Assembly (NCBI GenBank): GCA_037146775.1
Contig: JBAWWL010000001.1
Span: 325,464-389,463, forward strand
DNA length: 64,000 nt
DNA from: Candidatus Omnitrophota bacterium
GTDB taxonomy: Bacteria > Omnitrophota > Gorgyraeia > Duberdicusellales > 4484-171
Reading direction: 5' to 3'
The notes below the pieces were generated by a model, which worked only from the letters and a program-made list of their open reading frames with translations, did no database searches and was not told the DNA's origin. Positions 5,301-25,904 of the stretch are shown in pieces; the first letter of the stretch is position 1, and every line of letters starts with the position of its first letter. The position numbers and the translations under genes are program-made.

Positions 5301-6130
5301 AAGATGCAAAGACGACCTTAAAAAAATATGAGAATATTTTTCAAAATCTTGGAGAAGAGCTCGAAAAGCAGGGATATACGTTATCATGTAAAGGAGCTGG
5401 ACGATTTGAAGATCCTTTTAAAATATCCAATTCTTCCAATAACATCGTATTAGAGTGTAAGTGGGAATTTATTCCCCAAATTTCGTCATATGCCATCAAA
5501 TTGAGCAAGCAAATTAAGATTGATGAGCTCAAGGCTAGCAAATTTCCGATTGCCGAGCATCGCGAATTACATGGCAAAGAATATCGTTATTTTCGCTCTC
5601 ACAGAGTGTTGATTCATGAGGATGCGATCATTGAGGATCTTTCTCGGCGCACATTTTCTGCTATTCGGCTGCTTATTGATGCGGATCATTTAAGTAAATG
5701 GGATGAAAATACAACGGAAAAGTTATCCAAATATTTTGTGAAAGATGAGCATGTCGTAACCGAGATTGATCCGCATTGCATTAAAGTGGCCTTTCGATTC
5801 AATACGCGAAAACATACAACCAAGATTAAAACATTTTTGGATTTGATAGTGGTCTCATCTATGGTGGGAGAAATTAAGTCACTTAAAGAGTGCCCAAAGT
5901 TTTTTGATGAGAATGGAGTATGGAATGATGATGTATTTAATAATTGGATACTCGATGAAAACGCGCGACTGAAATTTGGTTATCTTATGAGAAAGGATAA
6001 CGAGTTACGTTTTTGCGACCGTTTATTTCCGGTTGGGTTGGAAGACGCTTTGATCCATAATATTGTGGAAGAAATTGCTCGAACCGCAGATGTGTACGAA
6101 TCGCATATTATTGGTGAAGATATTGTGTGA
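2291..6130 (+). CDS. SNF2-family SF2 helicase-like ATPase, 1279 aa, with a ~650-aa uncharacterised C-terminal region
   Basis: motif I 'LADEVGMGKT', Ia 'VVICPR', II 'LIFDEGQYLRN' (DExx-LRN), III 'LFLSATP', V/VI 'VIVCTDILKEGEDL...QRVGRIDR'. Confidence 0.8.
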   Translation: MENMIIEPFIKKILPDDVESLMNFNPPGALDKYKSMHNLQKEGVAAIYNILTEKNFAYLADEVGMGKTYQAIGLITLLWNLKRNARIVVICPRVNLQIKWQRDYRNFIINNYRGHMKKQGDDIVKSVLLNKPVVNPRICHNLRQFALELQSPERQLCILRYSSFTRPVFLKREDERDPLGAWNNAVEMMKFYGIHPSHKDKRLVEGCGDGMSLQFNEWFAEAFNEMLVNACEKEKGKKAIDLLIFDEGQYLRNENQTNSVILKAFEGRVNKWLFLSATPIHSGKENIQNVINRYACPKYIADSDLADTKKLQIKMKEFLVRRPREYFVRNSTDRDKLWAKYKYRYHNEEESKIKNMSPMESLVMAVVQKNLVKILGGKNNRFKIGCLTSFESLQASVYNQENKKALACDDEQDDANEEAEIMKSSDLYVSQDDVKKGHAEDLKDIPDMKFVDGFARRYKNTFGIEIPHPKVDFVVDQVSKKALNNGEKFVVFTRRINAVDEIVRRINDEYEKWIRERINSVWNIDIDALSKNQGTDPDEMISDDPDSDGLEARGKGLLQEANQKGNWLFRYRQTFRESGRNAMMFEENWFRYFSEINNIPLKDIVSKIPDELWNESWVFANRQKGAKTAKVIPSERFQYLLVQTVKKYPEILGLKDGTVNKWQNFFSKRYPLVTEQHCGEKQRAKNENLITYKGFWDIIREKISEPQGEVIKIFDLMRKSMDINDENDLLKREVLKNCLWQTIRLTDAILDLYCANDTAGGASAPVEDAVNEYCKYLFGDSDYAKLLRNQMKEWVEHIGLILTNCFSNDDFDLAGYAARESYVELRNPQFAVGMTGGNPNKTALSQFKTPGYPRVIVCTDILKEGEDLHLFCDQIIHYGVAWTSGDLEQRVGRIDRYFSMIERKLYGSSKPEKEKLNIYYPHLTQSVEKYQIERVINRAKEAELIMDNIGIDEHTEGRQIVLGVIANRPLGVAFLNTKPVLGEHPFTPSFASIKSSGLPIFSEQDAKTTLKKYENIFQNLGEELEKQGYTLSCKGAGRFEDPFKISNSSNNIVLECKWEFIPQISSYAIKLSKQIKIDELKASKFPIAEHRELHGKEYRYFRSHRVLIHEDAIIEDLSRRTFSAIRLLIDADHLSKWDENTTEKLSKYFVKDEHVVTEIDPHCIKVAFRFNTRKHTTKIKTFLDLIVVSSMVGEIKSLKECPKFFDENGVWNDDVFNNWILDENARLKFGYLMRKDNELRFCDRLFPVGLEDALIHNIVEEIARTADVYESHIIGEDIV

Positions 6131-6795: not shown

Positions 6796-9585
6796 ATGGT
6801 TTACGATAATTTGGGTCCTGAGGATAAAGCGAGGCATGAGCTTATTAATCCAGCTTTGAAGCTTGCGGGTTGGGATATTCAGCCTTTTAAGTCTGCAAGC
6901 CCTGATAGTTTTAAGGGTGTTGCTGTTGAGTATTTTCCGATGGGGTGGGGTGTTGGTGAGGCGGATTATGTTTTGTTTGTTAATGGCGAGGCTTGTGGCA
7001 TTATTGAGGCTAAAAAAGAGGGCGAGACGCTTGTCGGCAAAGAGCCTCAGTCAGCAAGATACTCCAAGGGTTTTCCTAAGGATTATCGGTCAGTAGATTT
7101 GCCGCTACCTTTTGTTTATGAGACTTCTGGGAACGAGATACGTTTCACTAATTGCTGGGATCCCAAGCCTAGAAGTAGAGAAGTCTTTCACTTTCACACA
7201 CCTAATGAATTAGAGGCTTGGGTCAAGACAGGCAAAGAGACTTTGAGAAAAAGGCTTACAGAGATGCCTCAGATTGACAATCCTAGTCTTTGGGATGTGC
7301 AAAAGACGGCTATTCGTAACGTTGAGGAGTCTCTTGCTGGCGCAAAGCCCAAAGCTCTTATACAGATGGCAACTGGTTCAGGCAAAACCTTTACCGCCGT
7401 GAACATGTGTTATCGCTTAATCAGGCACGCTAATGCTAAAAGAATACTTTTCTTGGTTGACCGAGGGAATCTTGGCAGACAAACCATGCAGGAATTTGAC
7501 AACTTCGTGGTGCCTAAAGACGGAAGAAAATTCAGAGAACTCTACAACGTCCAGCACTTGCAAAGTAACAAAATAGATGACGTGTCCAGAATATGTATCT
7601 CAACAATCCAGCGTATCTACTCGATGCTTAAGGGCGAAAAGCAGCTTGACCCAGCCAGCGAAGAACTGTCAGCGTTTGAAGACGATTACAGTCTTGAGCC
7701 AGCACCAGTCGAATATAATCCCAAGTTTCCGATTTCGATGTTTGACGTAATTATTGTGGATGAGTGTCACCGCTCAATCTATAACCTTTGGAAACAAGTG
7801 CTGGACTATTTTGATTGTTTCCTTATAGGTCTTACTGCTACTCCGTCCAAAGGAACGATTGCTTTTTTTAACAAAAATCTCGTCATGGAGTATTCGCATG
7901 AAGAGGCTGTTGCGCACAACATAAACGTTGACTTCACAGTTTATGACATAAGGACAAAGATTACGAAACGCGGCTCTACTATTCCTAAAGGCGAGGTCGT
8001 CCAGAAAAGGGATAAAAGGACAAGGCGCAAAAAATGGGAACAACTGGAAGACGAAGTCAAATATGACGCAGAGCAGCTTGACAGGGATGTTGTGTCTAAA
8101 GACCAAATAAGGACAATTATTCGAGCATTCAAAGAAAGAGTTCTTACCGACATTTTTCCCGGAAGAAAACACGTGCCCAAAACCCTGATTTATGCAAAGG
8201 ACGACAACCACGCAGAAGAAATTGTACAAATAATTCGTGAAGAGTTTGATGAAGGAAATGACTTTGCGGTAAAAATTACTTACAAGACTGAAGGCGAGAA
8301 GCCAGAAAATCTAATATCTCAATTCAGAAACGACTTTTATCCGCGAATTGCGGTCACTGTTGACATGATAGCGACAGGGACAGACATAAAACCACTCGAA
8401 ATAGTCTTCTTCATGAGGGCCGTTAGGAGTAGAAACTACTTTGAACAGATGAAGGGGCGCGGCGTACGAGTAATGAGGAGCGACGACTTCATGGCAGTAA
8501 CACCAGATGCAGTAGCAAAAGAAAGATTCGTCATTGTTGATGCCGTTGGTGTTACAGAAGTCGATGAGCTGAATGATACTCGACCGCTTGAACAAAACCC
8601 AACAATCTCATTCGAGAAACTACTAAAGTCTATACGCTTCGGCAGACCAACAAAAGACAAGCTATCATCAATCGCAGGAAGACTCATCAGGCTTGAGAAG
8701 AAACTCACCGAAGAACAAATAAAAGAAGTCAGGAAGCTCACGGACGGCAAAAAACTATCAGAATACGCACACGACTTCATTGTCGCGATAGACGAAGACA
8801 GAATAGTTGAGCACGTTCAGAAGGAAAAGGGTGAAAAAGGCGCATACCTCGAATACAAACCTACTCAGAAAGAATTGAACGAGACGGCAGACAAAAGGAT
8901 GATTGAGGCAGTAAAGCCCTTTGTTGGTAACGGCAAACTAATGGAAAGACTGCCACAAATAAAGGCAGAGACAGAACAAATTATTGACGACGTTTCTGTT
9001 GACGAGGTAGTAACTGCTGGCTATTCACCCATAGCAACAGAAAAAGCAAGAAGCATAATAAAATCGTTCAAGGAATTTATTGAGAAGAACAAGAACGAGC
9101 TTGATGCTTTGCAGGTGTTTTATTCCAGCAAGAAGGCTTTGCACTGGAAAGACGTTAAAGAGCTATCCGAGAAGATTAAAACTCCGCCTTATAATTTGAC
9201 GCCTTCCAAAATCTGGCAAGCATACAAACAACTTGAATCTTCCAAAGTGCATGGCCTATCAAGAAACAAAATATCAGACTTCGTATCACTCCTAAAATTC
9301 GAGTTGGGCAAAGAAGACGAACTCGAACCATTCACAGACACAGTAGACAAAAACTTCTCGCGCTGGCTAACACAACAACGAACAGCAGGCGTCCAATTCA
9401 GCCAAGAGCAACTCAAATGGCTCGAAAAAATCAAAAACCACATAGCCGAATCAGTAGAAATAACACCCGACGACTTCGACTACGCACCATTCGACACAAT
9501 GGGCGGACTAGGAAAAGCAAACAAAATATTCGGCAACAGAATAAACAAAATCCTCGAAGAACTAAGTGAAGAATTGGTGGCATGA
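6796..9585 (+). CDS. hsdR: Type I restriction enzyme R subunit (HsdR)
   Basis: N-terminal 'ELINPALKLAGWDIQ'; helicase motif I 'MATGSGKTFTA', II 'IIVDECHRS', III 'GLTATP'; 929 aa. Confidence 0.9.
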   Translation: MVYDNLGPEDKARHELINPALKLAGWDIQPFKSASPDSFKGVAVEYFPMGWGVGEADYVLFVNGEACGIIEAKKEGETLVGKEPQSARYSKGFPKDYRSVDLPLPFVYETSGNEIRFTNCWDPKPRSREVFHFHTPNELEAWVKTGKETLRKRLTEMPQIDNPSLWDVQKTAIRNVEESLAGAKPKALIQMATGSGKTFTAVNMCYRLIRHANAKRILFLVDRGNLGRQTMQEFDNFVVPKDGRKFRELYNVQHLQSNKIDDVSRICISTIQRIYSMLKGEKQLDPASEELSAFEDDYSLEPAPVEYNPKFPISMFDVIIVDECHRSIYNLWKQVLDYFDCFLIGLTATPSKGTIAFFNKNLVMEYSHEEAVAHNINVDFTVYDIRTKITKRGSTIPKGEVVQKRDKRTRRKKWEQLEDEVKYDAEQLDRDVVSKDQIRTIIRAFKERVLTDIFPGRKHVPKTLIYAKDDNHAEEIVQIIREEFDEGNDFAVKITYKTEGEKPENLISQFRNDFYPRIAVTVDMIATGTDIKPLEIVFFMRAVRSRNYFEQMKGRGVRVMRSDDFMAVTPDAVAKERFVIVDAVGVTEVDELNDTRPLEQNPTISFEKLLKSIRFGRPTKDKLSSIAGRLIRLEKKLTEEQIKEVRKLTDGKKLSEYAHDFIVAIDEDRIVEHVQKEKGEKGAYLEYKPTQKELNETADKRMIEAVKPFVGNGKLMERLPQIKAETEQIIDDVSVDEVVTAGYSPIATEKARSIIKSFKEFIEKNKNELDALQVFYSSKKALHWKDVKELSEKIKTPPYNLTPSKIWQAYKQLESSKVHGLSRNKISDFVSLLKFELGKEDELEPFTDTVDKNFSRWLTQQRTAGVQFSQEQLKWLEKIKNHIAESVEITPDDFDYAPFDTMGGLGKANKIFGNRINKILEELSEELVA

Positions 9586-10811
9586 ATTTGATAAGCGGAA
9601 AAACGATGACTTTGTGGGATTTAACTAAAGATAATGGTCTGCTAACGGATGGAGATTGGGTCGAAACTAAAGACCAAGATACTTTAGGGAGTATAAGTTT
9701 AATCCAACTCGCCGACATTAAGGATGGCTATTTTCAAAGGAAATCAGATAGATATTTGAATGGAAAAACAGCTGAGAGATTGAATTGCACTTTCTTAGAA
9801 AACGGTGATGTTTTAATTGCTAGATTACCTGACCCATTGGGGAGGGCTTGTATTTACCCTGGCGAAGAAAAAAAAGCAGTAACTGTAGTCGATGTATGCA
9901 TTCTTAGAATAGATAATAAAAAATGCAATAACAAATGGTTAATGTATCTGATAAATAATCCACATTTTCGTAAAGAAATTGATGGATTACAGAGTGGTAC
10001 GACTAGGAAAAGAATATCAAAAAAGAATTTAGCAGCGATTCGTTTTCTTGTTCCAGAGAAAAATATTCAGGATAAAATTGTTGAGACTATTGAAACCCAG
10101 TTCACTCGTCTTGACGTAGCAATCAAAAACCTCAAAACAATAAAGAACAAACTCAAAGCTTATAGAAGAAGCGTGCTCAAAGCGGCGTTCGAAGGAAAAT
10201 TAGTTGCGTTTGATGATATTCCAGAAAGACCGATTTCTGATTTTTGTATTAAGGTGAGACAGTTAAAACCTGAACAGGAAGATTTTAAGGAGTTTTTTTA
10301 TATTGATATCGGTTCGGTTGATAATAAAAAACATAAGATAGATTCTCCTAAAATTGTTTCTGCGCAAAAGGCTCCCTCGCGAGCTAGACAAGAAACTTTT
10401 GCTGGCGATATTGTTTATTCTACTGTGAGGGTATATTTGATGAATTTAGCAATTGTTCCAGAAATGGGGGGTAAAAAAATCATTTCTTCTACTGGATTTA
10501 CAGTTTTAAGACCTGTCGAAGAGTTAAACAATAAGTTTCTATTCTATTATTTGTTACGGGACGAGGTAACAAGCTATTTAAATGCCAAACAACGGGGTAC
10601 AAGTTATCCTGCTATACGAGACAATGATGTATTTGACATGAGAATTAAAGCCCCCAAAAGAGCAATTCAAAACAAAATTATACAAGAGATTGAGTCTCGT
10701 TTTTCTGTTATTGAGAAGGTTGAGAGTGTTGTTGATGTTTCGCTTGCGAAAGCAGAAACATTACGAAAATCAATATTGAAATCGGCTTTTGAGGGAAAGC
10801 TAGTTAGTTGA
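9582..10811 (+). CDS. hsdS: Type I R-M specificity subunit (HsdS), two target-recognition domains
   Basis: conserved central and C-terminal HsdS repeats 'LKAYRRSVLKAAFEGKLV' and 'LRKSILKSAFEGKLV'; 4-nt overlap with the hsdR stop. Confidence 0.85.
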   Translation: MNLISGKTMTLWDLTKDNGLLTDGDWVETKDQDTLGSISLIQLADIKDGYFQRKSDRYLNGKTAERLNCTFLENGDVLIARLPDPLGRACIYPGEEKKAVTVVDVCILRIDNKKCNNKWLMYLINNPHFRKEIDGLQSGTTRKRISKKNLAAIRFLVPEKNIQDKIVETIETQFTRLDVAIKNLKTIKNKLKAYRRSVLKAAFEGKLVAFDDIPERPISDFCIKVRQLKPEQEDFKEFFYIDIGSVDNKKHKIDSPKIVSAQKAPSRARQETFAGDIVYSTVRVYLMNLAIVPEMGGKKIISSTGFTVLRPVEELNNKFLFYYLLRDEVTSYLNAKQRGTSYPAIRDNDVFDMRIKAPKRAIQNKIIQEIESRFSVIEKVESVVDVSLAKAETLRKSILKSAFEGKLVS

Positions 10812-10823
10812 GGTGAGTGATGG

Positions 10824-11399
10824 ATGAATCTTACTTGTCCCAAAAAAGAAGCTTTGCTTCTTGATGATAAGATCGCAAAACTTGCGAAAGAATTGTTAAC
10901 TGATGAACAAATTAAATTAGCTGATAGCCTCTCTCAAGCGATGGTGTCTTCAAAAGCGAAAAGAACCGAAGCCGTAATGAAATTGCAAAAAATTGTAGGA
11001 ATGAAACCCAAGAGACCAATGTATTATATGAATTGGGAACTAAATTACTTGCCAAGATGGACAAGAAACTCTACAAAATATTTAGGGGACTATATTGACC
11101 TTTTAGTAAAAATATTTGTGGCAGATAAGCTAAAAGACGAAAAATATAAATCGGTCTCTTTGGGAGCAAACCTAAAATATATGCCTAATATTATGCCTGA
11201 AGAGATCATAACCGCACTCAGAACCTATAACGAATTAATATACGTTCCAGCAAAGCACGATTTTGAAGTAAAAAATAGGCGGCACAGGTTTACATGCAGA
11301 GAAGTAGTATATGCCTGTTTAATAACAATGGAACTGGGCAAAAGAATTATTCCGCTCTCACAAAAAGTAAAAGATTGGACTGAAGATAAAAGAAATTAG
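10824..11399 (+). CDS. hypothetical 191-aa protein inserted between hsdS and hsdM
   Basis: ORF with balanced composition, same strand, 12 nt after hsdS and 14 nt before hsdM; no recognisable motif. Confidence 0.4.
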   Translation: MNLTCPKKEALLLDDKIAKLAKELLTDEQIKLADSLSQAMVSSKAKRTEAVMKLQKIVGMKPKRPMYYMNWELNYLPRWTRNSTKYLGDYIDLLVKIFVADKLKDEKYKSVSLGANLKYMPNIMPEEIITALRTYNELIYVPAKHDFEVKNRRHRFTCREVVYACLITMELGKRIIPLSQKVKDWTEDKRN

Positions 11400-11413
11400 A
11401 AGGTGGTATTTTT

Positions 11414-12898
11414 ATGAGTGATTCAAGACAATTGGTAGATAAGCTATGGAATTACTGCGACATATTGCGAGATGATGGGCTCTCGTATGGTGATTACGTT
11501 GAACAACTCACCTTCTTGCTATTTTTGAAGATGGATGATGAGAGGACAAAACCACCATACAGTAAGAAAAGTGACATTTCCAAAAACCTCAATTGGCAAA
11601 GCCTCCTTGAAAAGGATGGGGCAGAGCTAGAAACCCAATACATAAGGACGCTCACTGAGCTTGGTAAACAAGAAGGCATCATGGGCGTTATTTTTAGGAA
11701 GGCGCAGAACAGGATTCAAGACCCAGCCAAACTACGCAAGCTTATTGCTGACCTTATTGATAGGGAGAATTGGTTGAGTCTTGAGGTTGATGTTAAGGGT
11801 GATGCTTATGAGGGTTTGCTGGAGAAGAATGCTGCTGACGTTAAGGGTGGGGCAGGTCAATACTTTACGCCAAGGCCGCTAATAAACGCAATGGTTAGGG
11901 TTATGAAGCCAGAAGCGGGAATGAAGATTCATGATCCAGCATGCGGAACAGGAGGTTTCCTGCTTTCAGCATACAATTATATTGTCAAAAATCAGAAGCT
12001 TAACAAAGATGAAAAGCATGACCTCAAGCACCGTACATTTACGGGAAATGAGATTGTTCCGTTGGCTGCGCGTCTCTGCGTGATGAATCTTTATTTGCAT
12101 GGCGTGAATGGTGAGGAGTCTCCTATTAGCCCTGATGATTCTCTCAAAAAGAATCCGGGGGGCGTTTATCACATGGTTTTGACTAATCCGCCTTTCGGAA
12201 AAAAATCGTCAGAGAAGATTGTTACTGATGAAGGCAAGGCAGAGAGTCAGAGTCTCACTATTTTGCGGGACGATTTTTGGGCGCAGACAAGTAACAAGCA
12301 ACTCAACTTTCTTCAGCATGTGAGGAGCATTCTCAAAATCAACGGAAAAGCAGCAATAGTCCTGCCAGACAATGTATTATTTGAGGGTGGGGCTGGCGAG
12401 ACTGTTAGGAAGAAGCTGATGCAGACTTGCGACTTGCACACTATTCTGAGGCTTCCCACAGGTATTTTTTATGCGCAGGGAGTTAAGGCTAATGTTCTTT
12501 TCTTTGACAAGAAGGAAGCCTCAAAAGATAGTGCTACAAAGAAGGTGTGGATTTATGATTTGCGTACAAACATTCACTTCACGCTTAAGGAAAATAGGCT
12601 TAAAGAGGACGATTTGGAAGACTTCATCAAGTGCTTTAATCCAGATAATAGATTTGAGCGCAAACAGACCTATTCAGTAAAGAATCCTGATGCCAGATGG
12701 AGATGTTTCGAGATAGAAGAGCTTCTGAAAAGGGACAAGACGAACTTAGACATCTTTTGGGTTAAGGACGAGAGCCTAGACGACGTAGACAGCCTCCCAG
12801 AGCCAGGAATAATAGCAAACGAACTGGTAGAAGACCTACAAGACGCTTTGGAGCAATTAGAAGAGATAGCGGAAGACTTAGGTAAGAACAAGAAGTAG
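11414..12898 (+). CDS. hsdM: Type I R-M N6-adenine DNA methyltransferase (HsdM)
   Basis: HsdM N-terminal 'LWNYCDILRDDG...LTFLLFLK', motif I 'DPACGTGGFL', motif IV 'LTNPPFG'. Confidence 0.9.
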   Translation: MSDSRQLVDKLWNYCDILRDDGLSYGDYVEQLTFLLFLKMDDERTKPPYSKKSDISKNLNWQSLLEKDGAELETQYIRTLTELGKQEGIMGVIFRKAQNRIQDPAKLRKLIADLIDRENWLSLEVDVKGDAYEGLLEKNAADVKGGAGQYFTPRPLINAMVRVMKPEAGMKIHDPACGTGGFLLSAYNYIVKNQKLNKDEKHDLKHRTFTGNEIVPLAARLCVMNLYLHGVNGEESPISPDDSLKKNPGGVYHMVLTNPPFGKKSSEKIVTDEGKAESQSLTILRDDFWAQTSNKQLNFLQHVRSILKINGKAAIVLPDNVLFEGGAGETVRKKLMQTCDLHTILRLPTGIFYAQGVKANVLFFDKKEASKDSATKKVWIYDLRTNIHFTLKENRLKEDDLEDFIKCFNPDNRFERKQTYSVKNPDARWRCFEIEELLKRDKTNLDIFWVKDESLDDVDSLPEPGIIANELVEDLQDALEQLEEIAEDLGKNKK

Positions 12899-13043
12899 TA
12901 TTTTTTGTCAAAAAGTACCATTTTTTTGAATAAGGTTTATAAAGAGAGTTCTATTACTCAGAGGAATTCATTGCAATCATTAAAGAAGCCAGAAGCAGAT
13001 ACAGGAAGGCCTTAATGCACTTAAGAGTTGAGAAATATAAAAG

Positions 13044-14387
13044 ATGAAATTTATTGATTTGTTTGCTGGTCTTGGGGGATTTCATGTAGCTCTACATAGC
13101 TTGGGGCACACTTGTGTTTTTGCTTCAGAGCTTGATGAAAGCTTAAGACAGCTTTATGACAAAAATTTTGGCTTTATGCCAAAAGGGGACATTCGTAAAA
13201 TCCGTATTAAGGAGATTCCGAGCCATGATATTCTCTGCGCGGGGTTTCCTTGTCAGCCATTCTCTAAAGCAGGAGAGCAGCAAGGTCTATCTTGTCCGAA
13301 GTGGGGTGACCTTTTCAATTATGTTATAAAAATTCTTCGTTATCATCAGCCGAAGTATTTCATACTTGAGAATGTTCCCAATCTTTCGCGCCACGATGGG
13401 GGTGAGACTTGGGATAAGATGAAAAGGAGGCTTAAGAACGCTGGATATTTCATTGATGACCATAGGTTGTCACCGCATCACTTTGGTATTCCCCAAGTTC
13501 GCGAGCGTATTTTCATCGTCGGTAGCATTTCAGGATTGAATGGGTTCTCATGGCCAGAAGTCAAGCGAGATGCTTCCATATCCATTGTGAATATGCTCAA
13601 AAAGAATCCCACTGATGCAAGGCAGCTATCTTCGCAAGTCATTAAATGCCTGAACGTGTGGCAGGATTTCATTCGTTGCTTTCCCAAGGACAAAGAACTG
13701 CCATCGTTTCCGATATGGTCGACGGAGTTTGGCGCAACGTACCCTTATGAAGACACAACTCCTTTTGCGATTGGTAATGCCGCTTTACGTAGCTATAGGG
13801 GGAATCATGGGAAGAGGCTCAAATCCGTAGCTCCCAAGGATAGGTTGGCGTTGCTGCCATCTTACGCCCGTGTGGAAGAGAAAAAGTTTCCTGATTGGAA
13901 AATCCAATTCATTCGTCAGAATCGTGAGTTGTACAGACAGCATAAGAAGTGGATAAACAAATGGAAGCCGAAGATTTTGAAGTTCCCATCAAGCCTGCAG
14001 AAGCTTGAATGGAACTGTAAGGGAGAAGTTCGAGATATCTGGAAGTACGTGATACAATTCCGTGCATCGGGTGTCCGCATAAAAAGACCAACCAGTTCAC
14101 CATCGCTTATTGCGATGACTTCGACGCAAGTTCCAATTATTGCATGGGAGAAAAGATATATGACGCCGAGGGAATGTGCATATCTCCAAAGTTTCGGTGA
14201 CTTGTTACACCTTCCAGAATCAGACACAAGAGCTTTTAAAGCCCTTGGAAATGCCGTAAATACAGATGTTGTCAAAATGGTTGCAGGCTCGCTCATTCCA
14301 AAGGCTAAGACGACAAAGTCACAATATCCCCTTAGTCCAGGATCTCAATCTTCTGACCGTATGCCTGAGGAATTGGTGGAGGTATAA
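13044..14387 (+). CDS. DNA cytosine-5 methyltransferase (Dcm-type)
   Basis: motif I 'DLFAGLGGF', IV 'GFPCQPFS', VI 'ILENVPNL', X 'ALGNAVN'. Confidence 0.9.
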   Translation: MKFIDLFAGLGGFHVALHSLGHTCVFASELDESLRQLYDKNFGFMPKGDIRKIRIKEIPSHDILCAGFPCQPFSKAGEQQGLSCPKWGDLFNYVIKILRYHQPKYFILENVPNLSRHDGGETWDKMKRRLKNAGYFIDDHRLSPHHFGIPQVRERIFIVGSISGLNGFSWPEVKRDASISIVNMLKKNPTDARQLSSQVIKCLNVWQDFIRCFPKDKELPSFPIWSTEFGATYPYEDTTPFAIGNAALRSYRGNHGKRLKSVAPKDRLALLPSYARVEEKKFPDWKIQFIRQNRELYRQHKKWINKWKPKILKFPSSLQKLEWNCKGEVRDIWKYVIQFRASGVRIKRPTSSPSLIAMTSTQVPIIAWEKRYMTPRECAYLQSFGDLLHLPESDTRAFKALGNAVNTDVVKMVAGSLIPKAKTTKSQYPLSPGSQSSDRMPEELVEV

Positions 14388-15959
14388 ATGGAAGCAAAGA
14401 GAGAAGCAAAAACAAAAGGAATTGATGAACTTAAAACAGTAATCATCAGGCCAGGTGTAAGCATGCTTTCGGTGCTGCGGCATCTGAATTATCGGCCGTG
14501 GTTTGCTATCGCAGAATTTGTTGATAATTCGCTGGAAAGCTTTATGAGACACAAAGAAGCGCTTCGAAAAGCTGATGTGAATAATCAAAGCCTGCATGTT
14601 GTGATTGAGTATGATCCGAGAGATGGAGGAAGGATTGTTGTGCGTGATAATGCGGCTGGAATCTATGAGTCAGAGTATGCGCGTGCTTTCAGACCAGCGG
14701 AGATTCCTCCAGATCGATCAGGATTAGCCGAATTTGGCATGGGAATGAAGAGCGCAGCTTGCTGGTTTTCACAAAATTGGTCGGTGAGAACTTCAGCGCT
14801 TGGAGAGAATGTCGAGCGTACCGTTTCTTTTGATATTTCAAAAATTGTCAGAGATAACATCGAGGAATTGACCATCACATCTAAGCCGATAAACGCAAAT
14901 GCTCACTTCACTGAAATTACTCTTCAGGGTTTGCATAGACCTCCTCAGACCCGCACCCTAGGAAAAATAAAAGAGCACTTGGCAAGCATATATCGGGTGT
15001 TTGTCCGAGAGGGATTGCTGACACTTACTTTTGATGGAGAGCCGTTAATCTACTTTGAGCCAAAAGTTCTGAAAGCTCCGTACTACAAAAAGCCCCAAAG
15101 CGATTCAGTGCTCTGGCGTAAAAAAATTGATTTTGACTTTGGCAGTGGTCAAAAAGCCAAGGGATTCGCAGCACTCCGAGACACAGCTTCGACAACCCAC
15201 GCAGGGTTTGCCCTATTCAGAAGAAATCGGCTTATTCAAGGCAGTTGCGATGAAGGATACCGGCCAGAAGTTATCTTTGGCCGCCCTAATAGCTATCGTT
15301 ATCAGCGTCTTTTCGGAGAGCTTCACCTTGAGGGATTTGATGTTAGCCATACAAAAGATGGGTTTCGTTGGGAGGAGCACGAGGATGTGTTTCTTTCTCT
15401 GCTGAAAGAGTTCCTTGACCAGGAACCACTGCCTTTACTTGCGCAAGCAGAAGGCTTTCGTGTAAGGCCTAAGCGTAACGCAATTAAACAAGCAGCTGAG
15501 CAGGCGGTGAATGAAACGGCAGAGGCTATAGCAGCGAAAGGTGCTGAAGCTATGAATACCGCTTCTGCAGAGGCGGCTCTGAGAGATCAGCCTCTTGCCA
15601 AATCTCAACGGTCGGCTCATATCATAGCTCAGCAAGTAGTGAAAGAGGTCGAGTGGCGATCAAAGCGTTGGCGTATAACCATTGATCTTATCGACGATCC
15701 GGGAGTCGGAGATTGGCTAACTTTAACTGGCGACCTCGAATCTGAAGCAAAAGGCCAAATTGGTATTCGTTTGTCGCTCGCTCATCCATTTATGGAACGA
15801 TTTGAGGGTTCAAGCGGAGAGTCAATCGAAGCTCTTCTTCGTTTAGCCGTTGCTATTGCCCTTAGTGAAGTTGCTGCTAGGGCCACCGGAGTCAGACGAG
15901 CCAGCGTAATTAGGAGAAGCGTGAACGAAATCTTGAGGGATTGCTTATCAAGTCCTTAA
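14388..15959 (+). CDS. GHKL/MORC-type (Bergerat-fold) ATPase, 523 aa
   Basis: N-box 'AEFVDNSLES', 'VVRDNAAGI' (DxGxG), 'GLAEFGMGMKSA' (G2 box); start codon directly abuts the Dcm stop. Confidence 0.75.
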   Translation: MEAKREAKTKGIDELKTVIIRPGVSMLSVLRHLNYRPWFAIAEFVDNSLESFMRHKEALRKADVNNQSLHVVIEYDPRDGGRIVVRDNAAGIYESEYARAFRPAEIPPDRSGLAEFGMGMKSAACWFSQNWSVRTSALGENVERTVSFDISKIVRDNIEELTITSKPINANAHFTEITLQGLHRPPQTRTLGKIKEHLASIYRVFVREGLLTLTFDGEPLIYFEPKVLKAPYYKKPQSDSVLWRKKIDFDFGSGQKAKGFAALRDTASTTHAGFALFRRNRLIQGSCDEGYRPEVIFGRPNSYRYQRLFGELHLEGFDVSHTKDGFRWEEHEDVFLSLLKEFLDQEPLPLLAQAEGFRVRPKRNAIKQAAEQAVNETAEAIAAKGAEAMNTASAEAALRDQPLAKSQRSAHIIAQQVVKEVEWRSKRWRITIDLIDDPGVGDWLTLTGDLESEAKGQIGIRLSLAHPFMERFEGSSGESIEALLRLAVAIALSEVAARATGVRRASVIRRSVNEILRDCLSSP

Positions 15960-15983
15960 TATTTGCCAAGTGGGGGTGTTTAA

Positions 15984-18221
15984 ATGACAGATGATACACA
16001 AGCAGAGCATATTGAGATGATTCCTGAAGCCCTTCCTCCAGGGTTGCAGTGGCAACCTGTGATCGGGGAAGAAACACATAGGCTTATGGAGCACTTAGCA
16101 TCAGAGTTAGATAATACAGAGGCTCGCCAGCGTATTCAGCAATCAGCAGCCTCAGCACTCGGACGATGCACTCCTCCGAATCAGCCGGGAGGGACGACTG
16201 GCTTGGTGCTTGGCCAAATTCAGAGTGGTAAGACCATGTCATTCACGACGCTAACTTCGATTGCTCGGGATAATGGATACCGCATGGTGATAGTAATTAC
16301 AGGTTCGACGGTAGCTCTTTTGAAGCAGTCTGTTGACCGGATCAGGCGTGATCTTGGAATCGAAAGTGGAAATCGAGGATGGAGGCATATTCGTATTGAA
16401 CGCGCTGGAACGCCTGATATTCAGTCGATCACCTCTGCTCTTAATGAATGGACAGATCCAGATGTTCCTCCATCGGAGCGCCGAACAGTGCTCGTAACAG
16501 TGCTGAAACAGCACAATAATCTTTCTCGTCTAACAGAAGCTTTACGGCAAATCAATCTAGATAGTGTACCTACACTCATCATTGACGACGAAGCAGACCA
16601 AGCTAGTTTAAATTCCCAAGTCCTAAATAATAATCAGAGCACTACATATATGAGGCTTTTAGAGTTGCGCGATGCTGTTCCAAGGCATACCTTTGTGCAA
16701 TACACTGCCACTCCCCAAGCTTTGATGCTCATCAATATCATTGATACTCTATCACCAAGATTTATCAATGTTCTTGAAGCAGGGCAAGGATACCGGGGAG
16801 GATATGACTTCTTCGAACAGTATAGAGTCCAAGTCATACGTGAGATTCCCTCAGCAGAACTTCCGACACGCCAACAGCCACTTCAAGAGCCACCACAGAG
16901 CTTTTTTGAAGCTCTCCGTCTCTTTTTTGTTGGGGTTTCTGCAGGATATTGTCGTGGTGAGCAAGGTAACCGATCTATGATGATCCATCCTTCCAGGACT
17001 ACCAACGAGCACACAATTTATCAGCATTGGGTACAGCAAACAAAAGAAGAGTGGGAGCGCCTTTTGAGACTTCCTGATGATGATCAAAGTAAACAAGAGC
17101 TTCTGGACGAATTTCGGCAAGCTGCTGCTGATCTTCGGACAACTGAGCCTAACCTACCTCCTGATAATGAACTTTTAGGAAACAGATTAAGGTTTGCTGT
17201 TAATCGATCACAAGTACAAGTGCTGAACGCACGCGGTGGGAGAACTCCCCAGGTAGATTGGGGTGGAGAGTACGGTTTGATTTTGATAGGTGGGACTGTG
17301 CTGGATCGCGGCTTTACCATTAGAGGTCTGACAGTGACCTATATGCCACGTCCGCTAGGGGGTGGGATGGCAGATACTTTACAGCAGCGTGGCCGATTTT
17401 TTGGGTACCGAGCTTCTTACTTTGGGCTTTGTCGTGTATTTTTACCCAGGGATGTTATTGATGCTTTTCGTGCATATGTGGAGCATGAGCATGATCTTCG
17501 AGATAGGCTATTGGGTTTTGAGCAAAACGGTCGTCCTCTTACAGAATGGCCTCGAATGTTTATTCTTGACCCTAGCCTTAGGCCAACAAGGGATAGCATC
17601 ATTGATATCGCATATCGCTGGGGAATTATTGGAAATGATTGGTCATGGCCAAGGAGTCCCCATGTCACTGCAGAGTCCAGCGCTAGCAACACTCAAGTAA
17701 TAGATGCGTTTACAAGCAATGTGGCGTTCCAGGAAGATGAAGGGAATCCGCAAAGAACAGAGCACCAAAAACATCTAGTTACCACCGGCCTTGAGTTGCG
17801 CATGGTACTCCATGATTTATTGATGAAGTTTCAGTTTCGTAGCATCGAGGACTCCAGGCAGTTTACTGCAGTTCTCTCGCTTCTACAAAGAATTGTAGAG
17901 CAGAACGCGAATGCTTCGGCAAGTGTATATCTTATGAGTGGACGAAGAACCCGTGAGAGACGCGTGGACAGTGAGGATCGGTTGGGAAAAGTATCGACTC
18001 TTTTCCAAGGAGCCCATCCGAGCGTAAGCGGGCCTCGTCGTGGCTCAATATACCCAGGGGATGCTGCTATAAAAGCTTCACAAGGCGTGACAGTGCAGAT
18101 TCACACCCTCAAAATAATTCGAGAGAATGGTGAGCAACGCGAGAACGTTCCAGCAATTGCTGTTTGGATTCCTAATGATTTAGCGCGGCCTATCCTCATC
18201 CAACCACAAGGAGGAGCATAA
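15984..18221 (+). CDS. Z1-domain-like P-loop NTPase, 745 aa
   Basis: Walker A 'GQIQSGKTMSFTTL' followed by 'MVIVITGST', as in Z1-domain proteins that accompany Dcm methylases; Walker-B-like 'LIIDDEADQ'. Confidence 0.6.
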   Translation: MTDDTQAEHIEMIPEALPPGLQWQPVIGEETHRLMEHLASELDNTEARQRIQQSAASALGRCTPPNQPGGTTGLVLGQIQSGKTMSFTTLTSIARDNGYRMVIVITGSTVALLKQSVDRIRRDLGIESGNRGWRHIRIERAGTPDIQSITSALNEWTDPDVPPSERRTVLVTVLKQHNNLSRLTEALRQINLDSVPTLIIDDEADQASLNSQVLNNNQSTTYMRLLELRDAVPRHTFVQYTATPQALMLINIIDTLSPRFINVLEAGQGYRGGYDFFEQYRVQVIREIPSAELPTRQQPLQEPPQSFFEALRLFFVGVSAGYCRGEQGNRSMMIHPSRTTNEHTIYQHWVQQTKEEWERLLRLPDDDQSKQELLDEFRQAAADLRTTEPNLPPDNELLGNRLRFAVNRSQVQVLNARGGRTPQVDWGGEYGLILIGGTVLDRGFTIRGLTVTYMPRPLGGGMADTLQQRGRFFGYRASYFGLCRVFLPRDVIDAFRAYVEHEHDLRDRLLGFEQNGRPLTEWPRMFILDPSLRPTRDSIIDIAYRWGIIGNDWSWPRSPHVTAESSASNTQVIDAFTSNVAFQEDEGNPQRTEHQKHLVTTGLELRMVLHDLLMKFQFRSIEDSRQFTAVLSLLQRIVEQNANASASVYLMSGRRTRERRVDSEDRLGKVSTLFQGAHPSVSGPRRGSIYPGDAAIKASQGVTVQIHTLKIIRENGEQRENVPAIAVWIPNDLARPILIQPQGGA

Positions 18222-18326
18222 ATAACCGGGTGCTGAAGAATTAAGGTTGGAAAGTATTAAGAGTATGGGAGTCAACTGTCTTGAATCATCCCAAAATGGT
18301 CTCTCAAAAAGTAATAAAGGCATTAA

Positions 18327-19475
18327 ATGGAAGAAGAATTTAATACTAATAGTGGCGAACAACAAACAAGAAGTATAGAACCTAAAATTGCTAATCCGAA
18401 TCAGCGACGAGGAGCTGAACAGCACTCACTTGAATTACGTTATGAAGTTTTGGAACGTTTCTTGTTTGATGGTTGGACTCATAGAGAGTTGCAAAAGAAA
18501 GTTTTGCAAATTCCTGCTCCAAAGCACGGCGGTGGATTTGAAGCTATGTATATTCTACATTGTTTCGGATTTGGTGGTGACGATACACGAGGGCTTTTGG
18601 CAAGAGTCAAGTCCTATGATGATTTTCAAAAATTGATTCGATTTCAGTTGTCAACATTTTCTCCGGAGCAGCAGGATGCAGTTCGACAAGTTTGGCGTAG
18701 ACATTTAGGGTCAATGAAGGAAGAGGAGGTAATTGCGGTTCAAACGTCTTCGAATGATAAAACAAACAGCGATGAGGACTGGTCTGATTCAGAGATTAAG
18801 GAATCGGTAAAGGCATATCTTTGGATGCTCGGCTGCGAAAAAAATGGGAAGTCGTATAACAAAAGCGCTGTTAATAAATCATTGCGGGAGGGAGTGTTAT
18901 CCAAGAGAACTCATGGTTCCATAGAGTATAGGATGGAGAATATATCAGCTACATTGGCGGAGTTGTGTCTTCCTTGGATTGAAGGTTATAAACCGCACGG
19001 AAATGTCGGGAGCGGAGTTAAAAAGAAGATTGTTAAAGTGCTTGATGAATTGGGTGTTGTTAGTGCTGAAGATTATTCCCCAACTAACAAGCTAGAAGTT
19101 TTGGATGAGCGTTCACGAAGGCTTCTAAAAATAGATTTTGTCGGTGAACCTGCCGGCAATATTTCTCCGATAAAAACAGAGACAGTGTCTTATCAATATG
19201 TTCGTGATCCGCTGGTTAAAGCATGGATTTTGAGAAATGCGATTGGTCATTGTGAATTATGTAAGAGCCCTGCACCGTTTGTCATGCCGGACGGAATTCC
19301 ATACCTTGAAATTCACCACGTTAAGCCTCTTTCGGAAGATGGTCACGATACGATAAATAATGCTGTCGCACTGTGTCCGAACTGTCATAAAAAATGCCAT
19401 CTGAGTAAAGATAAAAAAGAAGCCGCAGAGGCTCTTTATAACAATATTAGAAGACTTCAAAGAACAAGTGAATAA
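18327..19475 (+). CDS. HNH-endonuclease-domain protein, 382 aa
   Basis: C-terminal 'HCELCKSPAPFVMPDGIPYLEIHHVKPLSEDGHDTINNAVALCPNCHKKCH' (HNH with two Cys pairs). Confidence 0.75.
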   Translation: MEEEFNTNSGEQQTRSIEPKIANPNQRRGAEQHSLELRYEVLERFLFDGWTHRELQKKVLQIPAPKHGGGFEAMYILHCFGFGGDDTRGLLARVKSYDDFQKLIRFQLSTFSPEQQDAVRQVWRRHLGSMKEEEVIAVQTSSNDKTNSDEDWSDSEIKESVKAYLWMLGCEKNGKSYNKSAVNKSLREGVLSKRTHGSIEYRMENISATLAELCLPWIEGYKPHGNVGSGVKKKIVKVLDELGVVSAEDYSPTNKLEVLDERSRRLLKIDFVGEPAGNISPIKTETVSYQYVRDPLVKAWILRNAIGHCELCKSPAPFVMPDGIPYLEIHHVKPLSEDGHDTINNAVALCPNCHKKCHLSKDKKEAAEALYNNIRRLQRTSE

Positions 19476-20256: not shown

Positions 20257-20709
20257 ATGAAATGGGTGTGCATATCTTGGGGGTTACTTGTCTTATCTTT
20301 TATGTCCTTTGTGATTAGTGGTTGTTCTTCATCACAGAATTCTTCAGTGTTTTCTAATTCCAGCGGCGTATTAGGATGCACCCAATTCAAAGTTATTGGA
20401 GAGCATAAATATAAGGGTTCAGTTCGTATCGATATAGATTTTTATAACAATTGTTCTAAAAATGTGAGCATATACCTCTTTGATGTGATAGACCAAGAAA
20501 ACAATGTATATAGCTTAAATCATCAAACTTGGGTTTCAGCTGTTAACTGTTTTCCGACAATACTTAATCCAAACCAACATGCAATAGGTCATTTTGGGAC
20601 TTTCTCTAACGAAAGCATATACAGTACAACTGTATCGCTAAACAAATGGTATGTATCATACGATGGAAAAGAAGAAGATTGTTGGCAGATTTATAAAAGG
20701 TTAGGATGA
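20257..20709 (+). CDS. putative lipoprotein, 150 aa
   Basis: signal peptide plus lipobox 'VISGC'. Confidence 0.55.
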   Translation: MKWVCISWGLLVLSFMSFVISGCSSSQNSSVFSNSSGVLGCTQFKVIGEHKYKGSVRIDIDFYNNCSKNVSIYLFDVIDQENNVYSLNHQTWVSAVNCFPTILNPNQHAIGHFGTFSNESIYSTTVSLNKWYVSYDGKEEDCWQIYKRLG

Positions 20710-21065
20710 AAACTTTAACGATATTGTTACTATCAGTATTTTTCTTGTTCTTAGTTATGGGATGTTTCAAAGAGCCTTCATCCGTAGCAACTAAGTGTTT
20801 AGATGGTTGGGGTGAAGATTCCTTTTTTTCCAATACTGATAAAAGTGTCAACAATTCTCCGTGGACTAGTTTTAGCCCGCCTGCCGCTGTAATTGAAAGG
20901 CGTGTGGCATATTTAAAATACTCATGTGATGAGCCCACAAAATATTTTGTTAAAACCAATGACAGTTTTAACAATGTTTCACTTGAAGACTTAAGAAATT
21001 ATGTCAAAGCCTATAATTCTTCGTGCGACGGCTGCTTAGAAGTGTATATCTCTGGGTGTTGTTGA
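20706..21065 (+). CDS. putative lipoprotein, 119 aa
   Basis: signal peptide plus lipobox 'LVMGC'; 4-nt overlap with the upstream gene. Confidence 0.5.
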   Translation: MKTLTILLLSVFFLFLVMGCFKEPSSVATKCLDGWGEDSFFSNTDKSVNNSPWTSFSPPAAVIERRVAYLKYSCDEPTKYFVKTNDSFNNVSLEDLRNYVKAYNSSCDGCLEVYISGCC

Positions 21066-21327: not shown

Positions 21328-22638
21328 TTAGGGTGTTTGTGTGGCTTTTTGTTTTTGGTCTACAAGCGCCATCATTTCCAGCATCATTTGTTTTTTCATG
21401 GAAGCAAACTGGTCATTGAGGAATTGCACTTGTTGTTGCAGATGCTGAATCTCTACATCTTTTTGCTTAGCCTCCTCAACAATAACCTGCCTATCCAAAG
21501 GACGCTTACAGTTTTGGCAAACCGTTTCGTCAAAACCCGCTGCCGTATTACAAAAAGCACAAGTCCTAGTGCCTAAACCCTCTTGGCCTTTAGAATCACC
21601 AGCCAAAAGTCCTCGCCTTTGCAATTCCTTCTTAAAAGCCTCATCCTGACTTGAGAGGTCATAGGTTTTTAGCTGGCTTGTGCTCGTCCATCTTGCCGCG
21701 TGTTGGATTTCCATGTCGCTTTCGCCCCTAAGCCTCCTAATCGTAACACCATTACGTTTGAGGCTGTAGCACGTCACGGGCTTAATGATCCCCAGATTCT
21801 TACAAGCAGTCCGAATAAACTTGTTAACGTTATTTGGCTTGAGCTGCTTCAACGCGTTAGTCGTCCCAATATTTACGAAAAGAAACGACTGCTTGTTGGC
21901 CTTGTTTGGGTGAATGCTCAGCCACTTTGCAAGGTAAGGGAAGCTGTCAATACACTGAATAAGGCCAGTTCCTTCCTTGCCATGCTCGCTAATGTAAATC
22001 TTGGCATAATTATCAAACAACTTAACATCCTCAAGCTTCACATAAAGAAGTTCTTGCGGCCTTGCCAAACTCTCAAGCGACAAAGTGAGGAAGGCTTGAA
22101 TCCTTGGGTCTTTACCAAAATAGCCAACGAGGCTTTCAAACTCTTCATGGCTGAACTTGTCCTTTCGCATCTTCTGCCGGCTCTTATCAATCTTTGGTGA
22201 GATGTGGCGCACAGCGTAAGGCACAAGCGTTCCGTCCGGCCTGCCCTTTTCGTCTTTTTCCGGAAACAAAACTTTCCAAACAAGCTTAAGCTCCCTGATA
22301 AAAGTCTCTTTGCTCTGGGGAGTATTATAGACTTGGTGCATTGCCGCCATCAAAGCATCCATATCATCCCTGTCGCACTCCGCAAAATCTTTAACAAAAA
22401 AGTTGCCCGCAAACTTCACACACTGAATAATCCGAAGCCTCCTAATAAAAGACAAATCCCTAGCCCCAAAATGATTAAACAACTTCAAATAATATTCTAG
22501 GTTTGGCTTATGCTTGCAAACATACTTAGAACGCCCATCATTGCCAGCGCAAGCAATGATGTTTCTAAAATCTGCCACAAAATGTTCATACCTTTTTTTG
22601 TTCCCATAAATATCGTCCTCTGCCATCTTACACACCAT
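21328..22638 (-). CDS. tyrosine site-specific recombinase/integrase with a C-terminal zinc-ribbon and coiled-coil extension
   Basis: box I 'LESLARPQELLYVKLEDV', box II 'HAARWTSTSQLKTY' (HxxR...Y); 'CAFCNTAAGFDETVCQNCKRP' zinc ribbon. Confidence 0.8.
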   Translation of the reverse strand: MVCKMAEDDIYGNKKRYEHFVADFRNIIACAGNDGRSKYVCKHKPNLEYYLKLFNHFGARDLSFIRRLRIIQCVKFAGNFFVKDFAECDRDDMDALMAAMHQVYNTPQSKETFIRELKLVWKVLFPEKDEKGRPDGTLVPYAVRHISPKIDKSRQKMRKDKFSHEEFESLVGYFGKDPRIQAFLTLSLESLARPQELLYVKLEDVKLFDNYAKIYISEHGKEGTGLIQCIDSFPYLAKWLSIHPNKANKQSFLFVNIGTTNALKQLKPNNVNKFIRTACKNLGIIKPVTCYSLKRNGVTIRRLRGESDMEIQHAARWTSTSQLKTYDLSSQDEAFKKELQRRGLLAGDSKGQEGLGTRTCAFCNTAAGFDETVCQNCKRPLDRQVIVEEAKQKDVEIQHLQQQVQFLNDQFASMKKQMMLEMMALVDQKQKATQTP

Positions 22639-23606: not shown

Positions 23607-25904
23607 ATGCGGCAAGCAAAGGTAACGGTTCAAGTCTTAATATTTCTGGTAATTGCTTCAGCAGCCCAGGCAACATCCGGAGCATTAAGTCCCCTATCTA
23701 ACCAAGAAGGGTTGTTCAGTCTTAGCAACGGTAATTCTTTCAATATCAAGGCAACAGGGCTGAACGGCGACACCTGTGTCTATGAAATAACCTACAGTGG
23801 ATATGTTAAAGAGACTGGTAATCTTGATGTTGGTTGCTCTTACATTTACAAGTATCCGGGAAGCAAGGCGATATTGACTCATAAAGGATTCAATTACCAA
23901 ACAAGCAAGTGCGAATTCACTCTTTTCGAATATACCGGAAGTGCATCACAATGGTCGACTGTATGCAATGAGGACTGTTCAAGCTGCTCAAGCACATGCC
24001 CCTGTACGGGCGGAGCAGTAGTGGACTGCAACGAATGCGAATACACAGGATATGACTGCACAGGAAACACTCTTTACTACTGTACAAGCCAGGGAAACTG
24101 CATTGTGAGGGAATTGGTTGATGTCTGCGGAGAAAACGAAGTCTGTGACCCCACAGATGGAATCTGTGAAGGAGTAGGAACACCCTGCCCTTATGAATGC
24201 TGCAAATACACAAACGCATATCTAGACAAGAACTGTCCCACTGGATACGCCTGCTCAAATTATCAATGCATACAACAGTGCACCAATAATGCTGAGCAGA
24301 AATGTTTTAACGGTAATGTCTATTGGTATGACAGCTGCGGCAACAAAGGAAACCTCTATGACACCTGCGGCTCAGAAGAAACTTGCAACAACGGATATTG
24401 CAGTTCTACCAGGACTACCTGTCCTTACGGATGCTGTGATAGTGACGATAGATATTTTGACAAAAGCTGCTCTTCAGGATATGAATGCAAATCTCAATCT
24501 TGCGAAAAGATATGTACCAGCAAGTACTCCACCAAATGCTACAACAACGATGTTTACTACTATGACAGCTGCGGAAGCAAAGAGACAATAAAGTACGATT
24601 GTAAGATCGATGAGAAATGCAACGGCAATTATTGTGTATCCACAAAATCTGCCTGTCCTCATGAATGCTGTATAGGCAATCAGAATTATTTTGATAAATC
24701 ATGTCCTGGCAAGGACAATTGCGAAAACAACAAGTGCATCGAACATAAAGGCGCTTGTCCTTACGGATGCTGTGACATATTTTCCGAATATGAAGAGAAG
24801 ACCTGTGAAGCGGGTTTTTCCTGCCTTGCAAATAAATGCGAGCAAATGAGTCCTGACAGTATTGAACTTCACAGCAAAATTAAACCTCACGATTCTTTGC
24901 TTTTGACCTTGTTAGACGGGCTTACTGGAAGGGACTATTCCGAACAAAAGTTCAACACTAACCTAAGAAAAGTGTATGAATACGTAAGCAGCATACCTTA
25001 CAGATACGATGACGAAAACAGCGCGGGCTGTATAAAGGGGAGCAAAGATTGCGGAGATGGAAGGCCTGGAATAGATTATTCTCAAGAACCCAAAGAGACT
25101 ATCTCAGAAAACATGGGAGACTGTGAAGACCACGCAATATTATTACAGAGCATGAACGAAGCATTATTCTACAAAACATATGGAACGATTCCTAAAGGCA
25201 GACTCTACCTAGTGTGTGGATGTATAGACTTCAATAATGACGGAGAAGAAGAAGGATGCCACTGCTGGAACATAATTCTGGATGATGACCCCTTATCAAG
25301 CTCAGGTAATACTAATAACCAAGCAATTACACGAGAAGTCCTGGTCGGCGACGTAGGCATCGGAGATATAAAATCAAATCCCCGTAAGATTACTGTGGAA
25401 ATCAAGCCTTATGTTAGCGGCGAGACGGATAAATCAATGACCAGGCAAGCTGTGTTATGGAATAACAAAAAATGGAATGAACTGGAATCAACATGGAAAA
25501 ACCCTTTTGATTTTTATGTTAACCTAAAATATCCCTTTAGCGAGGTATGGTACGTAGCGACAAGTGAAGAATTTTATTACGCACCAGATTTCACGAAAAT
25601 AGGCTGCGAATATGAACAAAGGTTACTATGGTACCTAGGATTAGACAACCTATGCCCTGCTGAAAAAAGCGCATCACCAGGCACAAAAGAAACAGCACCT
25701 CAACCAGAAACTAAAGCAATACAGCCAGAAACTACCAAAGTAACCTGGTGGAAAAAAGTATTAGAAGGCGACACAGAAAATAAAGACAATACCTCTGGGC
25801 AGCCAAAGCAAGAGCAGAAGGCAGATGGAACAAACGAAGCACCTCCACAACAAAAGCCATCCAAAGAAAAGACTTGGTGGAAACCCTGGACATGGCGCTG
25901 GTAA
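23607..25904 (+). CDS. secreted cysteine-rich repeat protein, 765 aa, with C-terminal transglutaminase-like cysteine-protease domain and Trp-rich tail
   Basis: signal peptide; at least four 'CPYGCC...D..C..GY.C....C' modules alternating with 'C...VY.YDSCG...' modules; 'GDCEDHAILL' and 'GCHCWNIILDDD' match the transglutaminase Cys and His-Asp motifs; C-terminal 'WWKPWTWRW'. Confidence 0.7.
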   Translation: MRQAKVTVQVLIFLVIASAAQATSGALSPLSNQEGLFSLSNGNSFNIKATGLNGDTCVYEITYSGYVKETGNLDVGCSYIYKYPGSKAILTHKGFNYQTSKCEFTLFEYTGSASQWSTVCNEDCSSCSSTCPCTGGAVVDCNECEYTGYDCTGNTLYYCTSQGNCIVRELVDVCGENEVCDPTDGICEGVGTPCPYECCKYTNAYLDKNCPTGYACSNYQCIQQCTNNAEQKCFNGNVYWYDSCGNKGNLYDTCGSEETCNNGYCSSTRTTCPYGCCDSDDRYFDKSCSSGYECKSQSCEKICTSKYSTKCYNNDVYYYDSCGSKETIKYDCKIDEKCNGNYCVSTKSACPHECCIGNQNYFDKSCPGKDNCENNKCIEHKGACPYGCCDIFSEYEEKTCEAGFSCLANKCEQMSPDSIELHSKIKPHDSLLLTLLDGLTGRDYSEQKFNTNLRKVYEYVSSIPYRYDDENSAGCIKGSKDCGDGRPGIDYSQEPKETISENMGDCEDHAILLQSMNEALFYKTYGTIPKGRLYLVCGCIDFNNDGEEEGCHCWNIILDDDPLSSSGNTNNQAITREVLVGDVGIGDIKSNPRKITVEIKPYVSGETDKSMTRQAVLWNNKKWNELESTWKNPFDFYVNLKYPFSEVWYVATSEEFYYAPDFTKIGCEYEQRLLWYLGLDNLCPAEKSASPGTKETAPQPETKAIQPETTKVTWWKKVLEGDTENKDNTSGQPKQEQKADGTNEAPPQQKPSKEKTWWKPWTWRW

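Follow-up and report, generated by a model that had tools for sequence, protein, structure and literature searches.

Gene content of the cassette

The DNA analyzed here is a 64,000-nucleotide stretch (the window) of a Candidatus Omnitrophota bacterium (assembly GCA_037146775.1, contig JBAWWL010000001.1, positions 325,464 to 389,463). It carries a four-gene cassette on the forward strand, encoding a C5-cytosine DNA methyltransferase (Dcm; 13044-14387, 447 amino acids, aa), a GHKL (Bergerat-fold) ATPase (14388-15959, 523 aa), a second ATPase/helicase (15984-18221), and an McrA-type HNH endonuclease (18327-19475, 382 aa). The cassette is a deletion variant of a known, uncharacterized methylase-ATPase system, and the cognate nuclease of that system is missing. 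The four same-strand open reading frames (ORFs), with the start of the GHKL ATPase gene abutting the Dcm stop, had been described in the original prediction, which was made from the letters of the window, and this layout was confirmed. The gene order is identical in the NCBI metagenome-assembled genome GCA_964613555.1 and in the Logan contig of SRR12676968, two sequences possibly assembled from the same reads.

The original prediction named the first two products as a C5-cytosine methyltransferase and a GHKL ATPase, and both identities held. Dcm was matched by Pfam DNA_methylase (1.3e-69), TIGR00675 (2.2e-63), and PADLOC MTase_II (1.4e-76). Its catalytic motifs I, IV, VI, VIII, and X are all intact, and the CxxC/HH/N/CPNCH set of the HNH protein is likewise complete. 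The GHKL ATPase was matched by Pfam HATPase_c_3 (2.6e-14, aa 35-169) and contains the N, G1, and G2 boxes. Its ATP-binding motifs (E43, D46/N47, D87-G91, and F116-G117-x-G119-M-K121) are invariant across 24 orthologues. A search of PDB by sequence revealed no solved homologue of this protein, the profile search giving only MutL at E 0.29. Its sequence places it in the HATPase_c_3 / MORC-paraMORC radiation, either as MORC proper or as a member of one of the paraMORC families. The second ATPase, previously called a Z1-type Walker-A protein, was matched by PADLOC Helicase_II (1e-47), and a membership comparison gave 27% identity (E 2e-37, aa 74-560). The ATPase motifs found in the cassette are Walker A GQIQSGKT, DEAD-like IIDDEADQA, TATPQ, and QQRGRFFGY; the DThhQXuRhFG motif of the helicase reads ADTLQQRGRFFG.

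Orthologues of Dcm, the HATPase_c_3 ATPase, and the DThhQXuRhFG helicase were found together in approximately 70 of 80 loci across phyla, with Dcm in the same slot (E 1e-115 to 1e-200). Iyer et al. (2008) described this type of operon. No experimental paper on the Dcm-GHKL-helicase-DUF4420 operon type was found in the literature searched.

Deletion of DUF4420 and part of vsr

In relatives, DUF4420 and vsr follow the helicase gene. DUF4420, for which no PADLOC model exists, was found in approximately 72 of the 80 relatives, including all eight closest, and a Vsr gene is frequent among them. The relative at locus L083 (L numbers denote loci of relatives) was aligned with the window by blastn. 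Window positions 13043-18214 correspond to L083 916-6082 (75.6% identity), and positions 18234-19414 correspond to L083 7464-8643 (75.8% identity). Since the two sequences are collinear on both flanks of the gap, the window lacks exactly L083 6083-7463 (~1.38 kb), a segment without counterpart in the window that holds DUF4420 together with the 5' three quarters of vsr. The deletion junction lies at 18222-18232.

A pseudogene remnant of the 3' end of vsr persists directly downstream of the junction (18233-18343, forward strand). This 111-nt remnant represents the last ~36 codons of vsr, shares 78% nucleotide identity with L083, and translates as LKN, an in-frame stop (18242-18244), GWKVLRVWESTVLNHPKMVSQKVIKALNGRRI, and a terminal stop; the C-terminus of L083 Vsr is LKNKGWKVIRVWESTILNHPKSVSRRIKKVLDEKRR, followed by the stop. 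A translocated copy of DUF4420 or vsr elsewhere in the window was considered and rejected, as neither protein had a match in any of the six frames of the 64-kb window. Three other loci without DUF4420 (L018, L033, and L061) contain no replacement nuclease and end in housekeeping or integrase genes.

Domain composition of the HNH protein

The HNH protein ends in an HNH/Zn-finger nuclease domain of the McrA type (aa ~250-382). Ahead of it lie a helical core N-domain (aa ~150-245) and, nearest the N-terminus, a helical N-extension (aa ~24-139). A profile of the HNH family matched residues 160-286 of EcoKMcrA (PDB 6GHC; 2e-52) as well as ScoMcrA (5ZMM; 6e-15), and PADLOC assigned the protein to mREase_IV (6.8e-38). 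The AlphaFold2 model is confident (predicted local distance difference test 86.6), and its top Foldseek matches were EcoKMcrA and ScoMcrA.

EcoKMcrA and ScoMcrA are modification-dependent Type IV HNH endonucleases, and their likeness to the HNH protein is limited to the C-terminal linker and HNH/Zn-finger domain. The reader domains of these enzymes (NEco of McrA; SBD and SRA of ScoMcrA) are absent from the HNH protein, which has two all-helical domains instead; no McrA-homologous N-terminal domain for reading 5-methylcytosine or 5-hydroxymethylcytosine was found in it. A structural search with the two all-helical domains gave no significant match. The core N-domain contains many invariant polar residues, is almost invariant family-wide, and matches the PADLOC candidate PDC-S36. 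Outside the HNH_2-type terminal genes that follow Vsr in L084 and L177, which share it, the N-extension is very rare; a homologue search using the N-extension alone returned only two matches. In L083, the closest HNH-bearing relative, a frameshift divides the long-form HNH gene (7557-8695) into two ORFs, one for the N-extension (90 aa) and one for HNH (261 aa); this is either a sequencing error or a real inactivation.

Genomic contexts of HNH homologues

The wider HNH family is mostly solitary, as expected of an autonomous (Type IV-like) nuclease. In 77 of 79 metagenomic loci with HNH homologues of 45-53% identity, there is no Dcm within ~7 kb and no conserved partner gene. A conserved partner of the solitary homologues was sought and rejected; only lineage-specific synteny in Pseudomonas-like contigs was seen.

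The contexts of closer homologues are of several kinds. The operon of L083 ends in the order DUF4420-Vsr-HNH, and its HNH gene is 76% identical in nucleotide sequence to that of the window. In L084 and L177, Vsr is followed by an HNH_2 gene that shares the N-extension. These three arrangements indicate that the HNH gene was already the terminal gene before the deletion. In L090, the order is MZB-Vsr-Dcm-HNH, and the long-form HNH gene (76% nucleotide identity) overlaps an unrelated Dcm gene by 4 nt. In L092-95 and L175/176, the order is Vsr-Dcm-GHKL (630 aa)-UvrD/PD-(D/E)xK-HNH; this upstream module is kept while the downstream neighbor varies. The Dcm proteins of L090 and L092 matched the window-type Dcm profile at 1e-24 to 1e-29, compared with ~1e-200 for orthologues.

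L092 (1859-8735) and L175 (1427-8312) provide a second Dcm-based five-gene cassette, with a UvrD-PD-(D/E)xK fusion of 913 or 934 aa and a 630-aa GHKL ATPase of the HATPase_c_3 family. The Type II systems downstream of these cassettes differ, being FokI-like in one and NgoPII-like in the other. In L088, a close relative of the window cassette, the nucleotide-modification-associated domains Nmad2 and Nmad3 directly follow Vsr (11896-13336), and two serine recombinases come next.

Comparison with known systems

Membership in MZA (MzaABCDE) was rejected, because the NCBIfam scores were far below the cut-offs for both MzaB (19.6 bits; cut-off 850) and MzaC (103.6; cut-off 1500); both similarities are partial, and the GHKL ATPase is only a weak match to MzaB. 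Distinct from MZA, the cassette carries Dcm and has no AIPR match. AIPR, named in the original prediction as a usual nuclease partner, is a partner in more remote Mza-like relatives, not in this cassette family. Membership in MADS was also rejected: the MADS of the preprint is a different 8-gene operon, and only the neighboring Type I genes of the window match the mad2 and mad5 models. CglI/NgoAVII systems have no GHKL ATPase; their R subunit, with a PLD nuclease and a B3-like DNA-binding domain, is in turn absent from the cassette, where neither an RE_NgoFVII nor a B3 protein was found. The biochemistry of CglI/NgoAVII (PMC4267653, PMC5861437) provides a motor analogy for the cassette ATPases.

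Possible roles of the HNH nuclease

In this genome, Dcm would keep methylating, and the two intact ATPases would be left without a cognate nuclease; the classical restriction arm of the cassette is therefore probably disabled or idle. The HNH protein would be a self-contained McrA-like nuclease, probably steered by its own putative helical DNA-binding N-domains to a DNA feature other than the host methylation pattern. Its action would be Type IV-like, adding a second, accessory layer of defense that would be passed on together with Dcm/Vsr operons. We give about an even chance to the proposal that the enzyme works alone as such a layer. The original prediction, in which the ATPases and the nuclease form a restriction complex, is partly supported: an EcoKMcrA-type HNH protein from a mostly solitary family is more suggestive of an autonomous, Type IV-like enzyme than of a restriction subunit of an ATPase complex.

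Several observations weigh against an autonomous enzyme. In all five visible contexts, the closest HNH homologues (at least 61% identity) are the 3'-terminal genes of Dcm/Vsr operons, so this subclade is not simply solitary. The same linkage holds for 2 of the 79 distant homologues (Fisher p ~7e-7; 8e-6 without the window), and a Dcm-linked HNH gene differs in this respect from those of EcoKMcrA and ScoMcrA. In the comparisons made, the N-domains are also unlike every known modified-base reader. Modification dependence of cleavage is putative, with 77 of 79 distant homologues solitary and the closest relatives in Dcm operons.

It is possible, although we hold it only tentatively, that HNH has taken over as the effector nuclease used by the ATPase motor. 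Loss of DUF4420 is commoner at loci with an adjacent HNH-type gene (3/7 versus 5/75 loci, Fisher p 0.018), but without the window, which is the ascertainment case, the p value rises to 0.08. A take-over is favored by the occurrence of the N-extension only on HNH/HNH_2 nucleases that terminate Dcm operons of this kind, and by the listing of HNH nucleases among MORC/paraMORC operon partners by Iyer et al. However, HNH coexists with DUF4420 in relatives and is not required as the nuclease there, and L018, L033, and L061 illustrate that plain decay also occurs. Restriction-modification (R-M) systems are expected to start decaying by losing the nuclease while the methylase is retained, and a window copy that amounts to no more than a crippled R-M system would exemplify this ordinary course.

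A conventional Type II pair is highly improbable. In such a pair, HNH would be the sequence-specific endonuclease partner of the neighboring Dcm, with the ATPases as a separate or defunct module. The Vsr-Dcm-HNH order of L090, with its overlap at the Dcm stop, does resemble a classic V-M-R unit, and the predicted helix-turn-helix/homeodomain-like N-domains could read sequence. Nevertheless, HNH proteins of 61-73% identity pair with very different Dcm enzymes, and this divergence argues against a Type II partnership in which HNH is sequence-matched to any single Dcm; moreover, the core N-domain is almost invariant, unlike Type II specificity domains, and most of the family is found away from any methylase gene. 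Mere adjacency within a defense island, without any functional or regulatory tie to the Dcm cassette, would fit the defense-gene stack that runs from 381 to 22638 and ends at an integrase, and it would fit the solitary habit of most family members. We regard it as highly improbable, given the five-of-five linkage of the closest homologues, their frequent start/stop overlaps or 6-14 nt gaps, and the retention of HNH with the upstream Vsr-Dcm-GHKL-UvrD module in L092 and L175 while the downstream neighbor changes.

Natural variants without the PD-(D/E)xK nuclease but with HNH and intact ATPases could reveal which component recognizes unmethylated DNA and could serve as a test of nuclease exchangeability. 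An McrA-like HNH subclade that repeatedly ends different Dcm/Vsr operons suggests an as yet undescribed design rule, whereby an R-M arm and a Type IV-like arm are placed in one transcription unit.

Surrounding defense island

The island consists, in order, of a PLD-like protein and SNF2 helicase pair, a Type I R-M system, the cassette with HNH, small ORFs, and a tyrosine integrase. The first pair (381-6130, forward strand), which directly precedes the Type I system, encodes a 640-aa PLD-like protein (PLDc_2; 381-2303) and an overlapping 1279-aa SNF2/ResIII helicase. These proteins match PDC-M27B (4.5e-41) and PDC-M27C (4.8e-95), respectively, of the uncharacterized PADLOC candidate PDC-M27. 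The Type I operon (6796-12898, forward strand) contains hsdR, hsdS, and hsdM. A 191-aa ORF between hsdS and hsdM (10824-11399) has no Pfam, NCBIfam, or PADLOC match; both public assemblies also annotate it as a gene.

The tyrosine integrase (21328-22638, reverse strand; Phage_integrase 9.5e-10) carries CxxC...CxxC and a coiled-coil-like tail in a long C-terminal extension, and it probably marks the island edge. No tRNA gene was found in the 64-kb window when an att site or tRNA was sought for the island. Small lipoprotein-like ORFs occupy 20257-21065. Beyond the integrase, a 765-aa signal-peptide protein (23607-25904, forward strand) contains many cysteine-rich repeats of the form CP.(E/G)CC...DK.C, a weak transglutaminase-like match, and a lysine/proline-rich tail.
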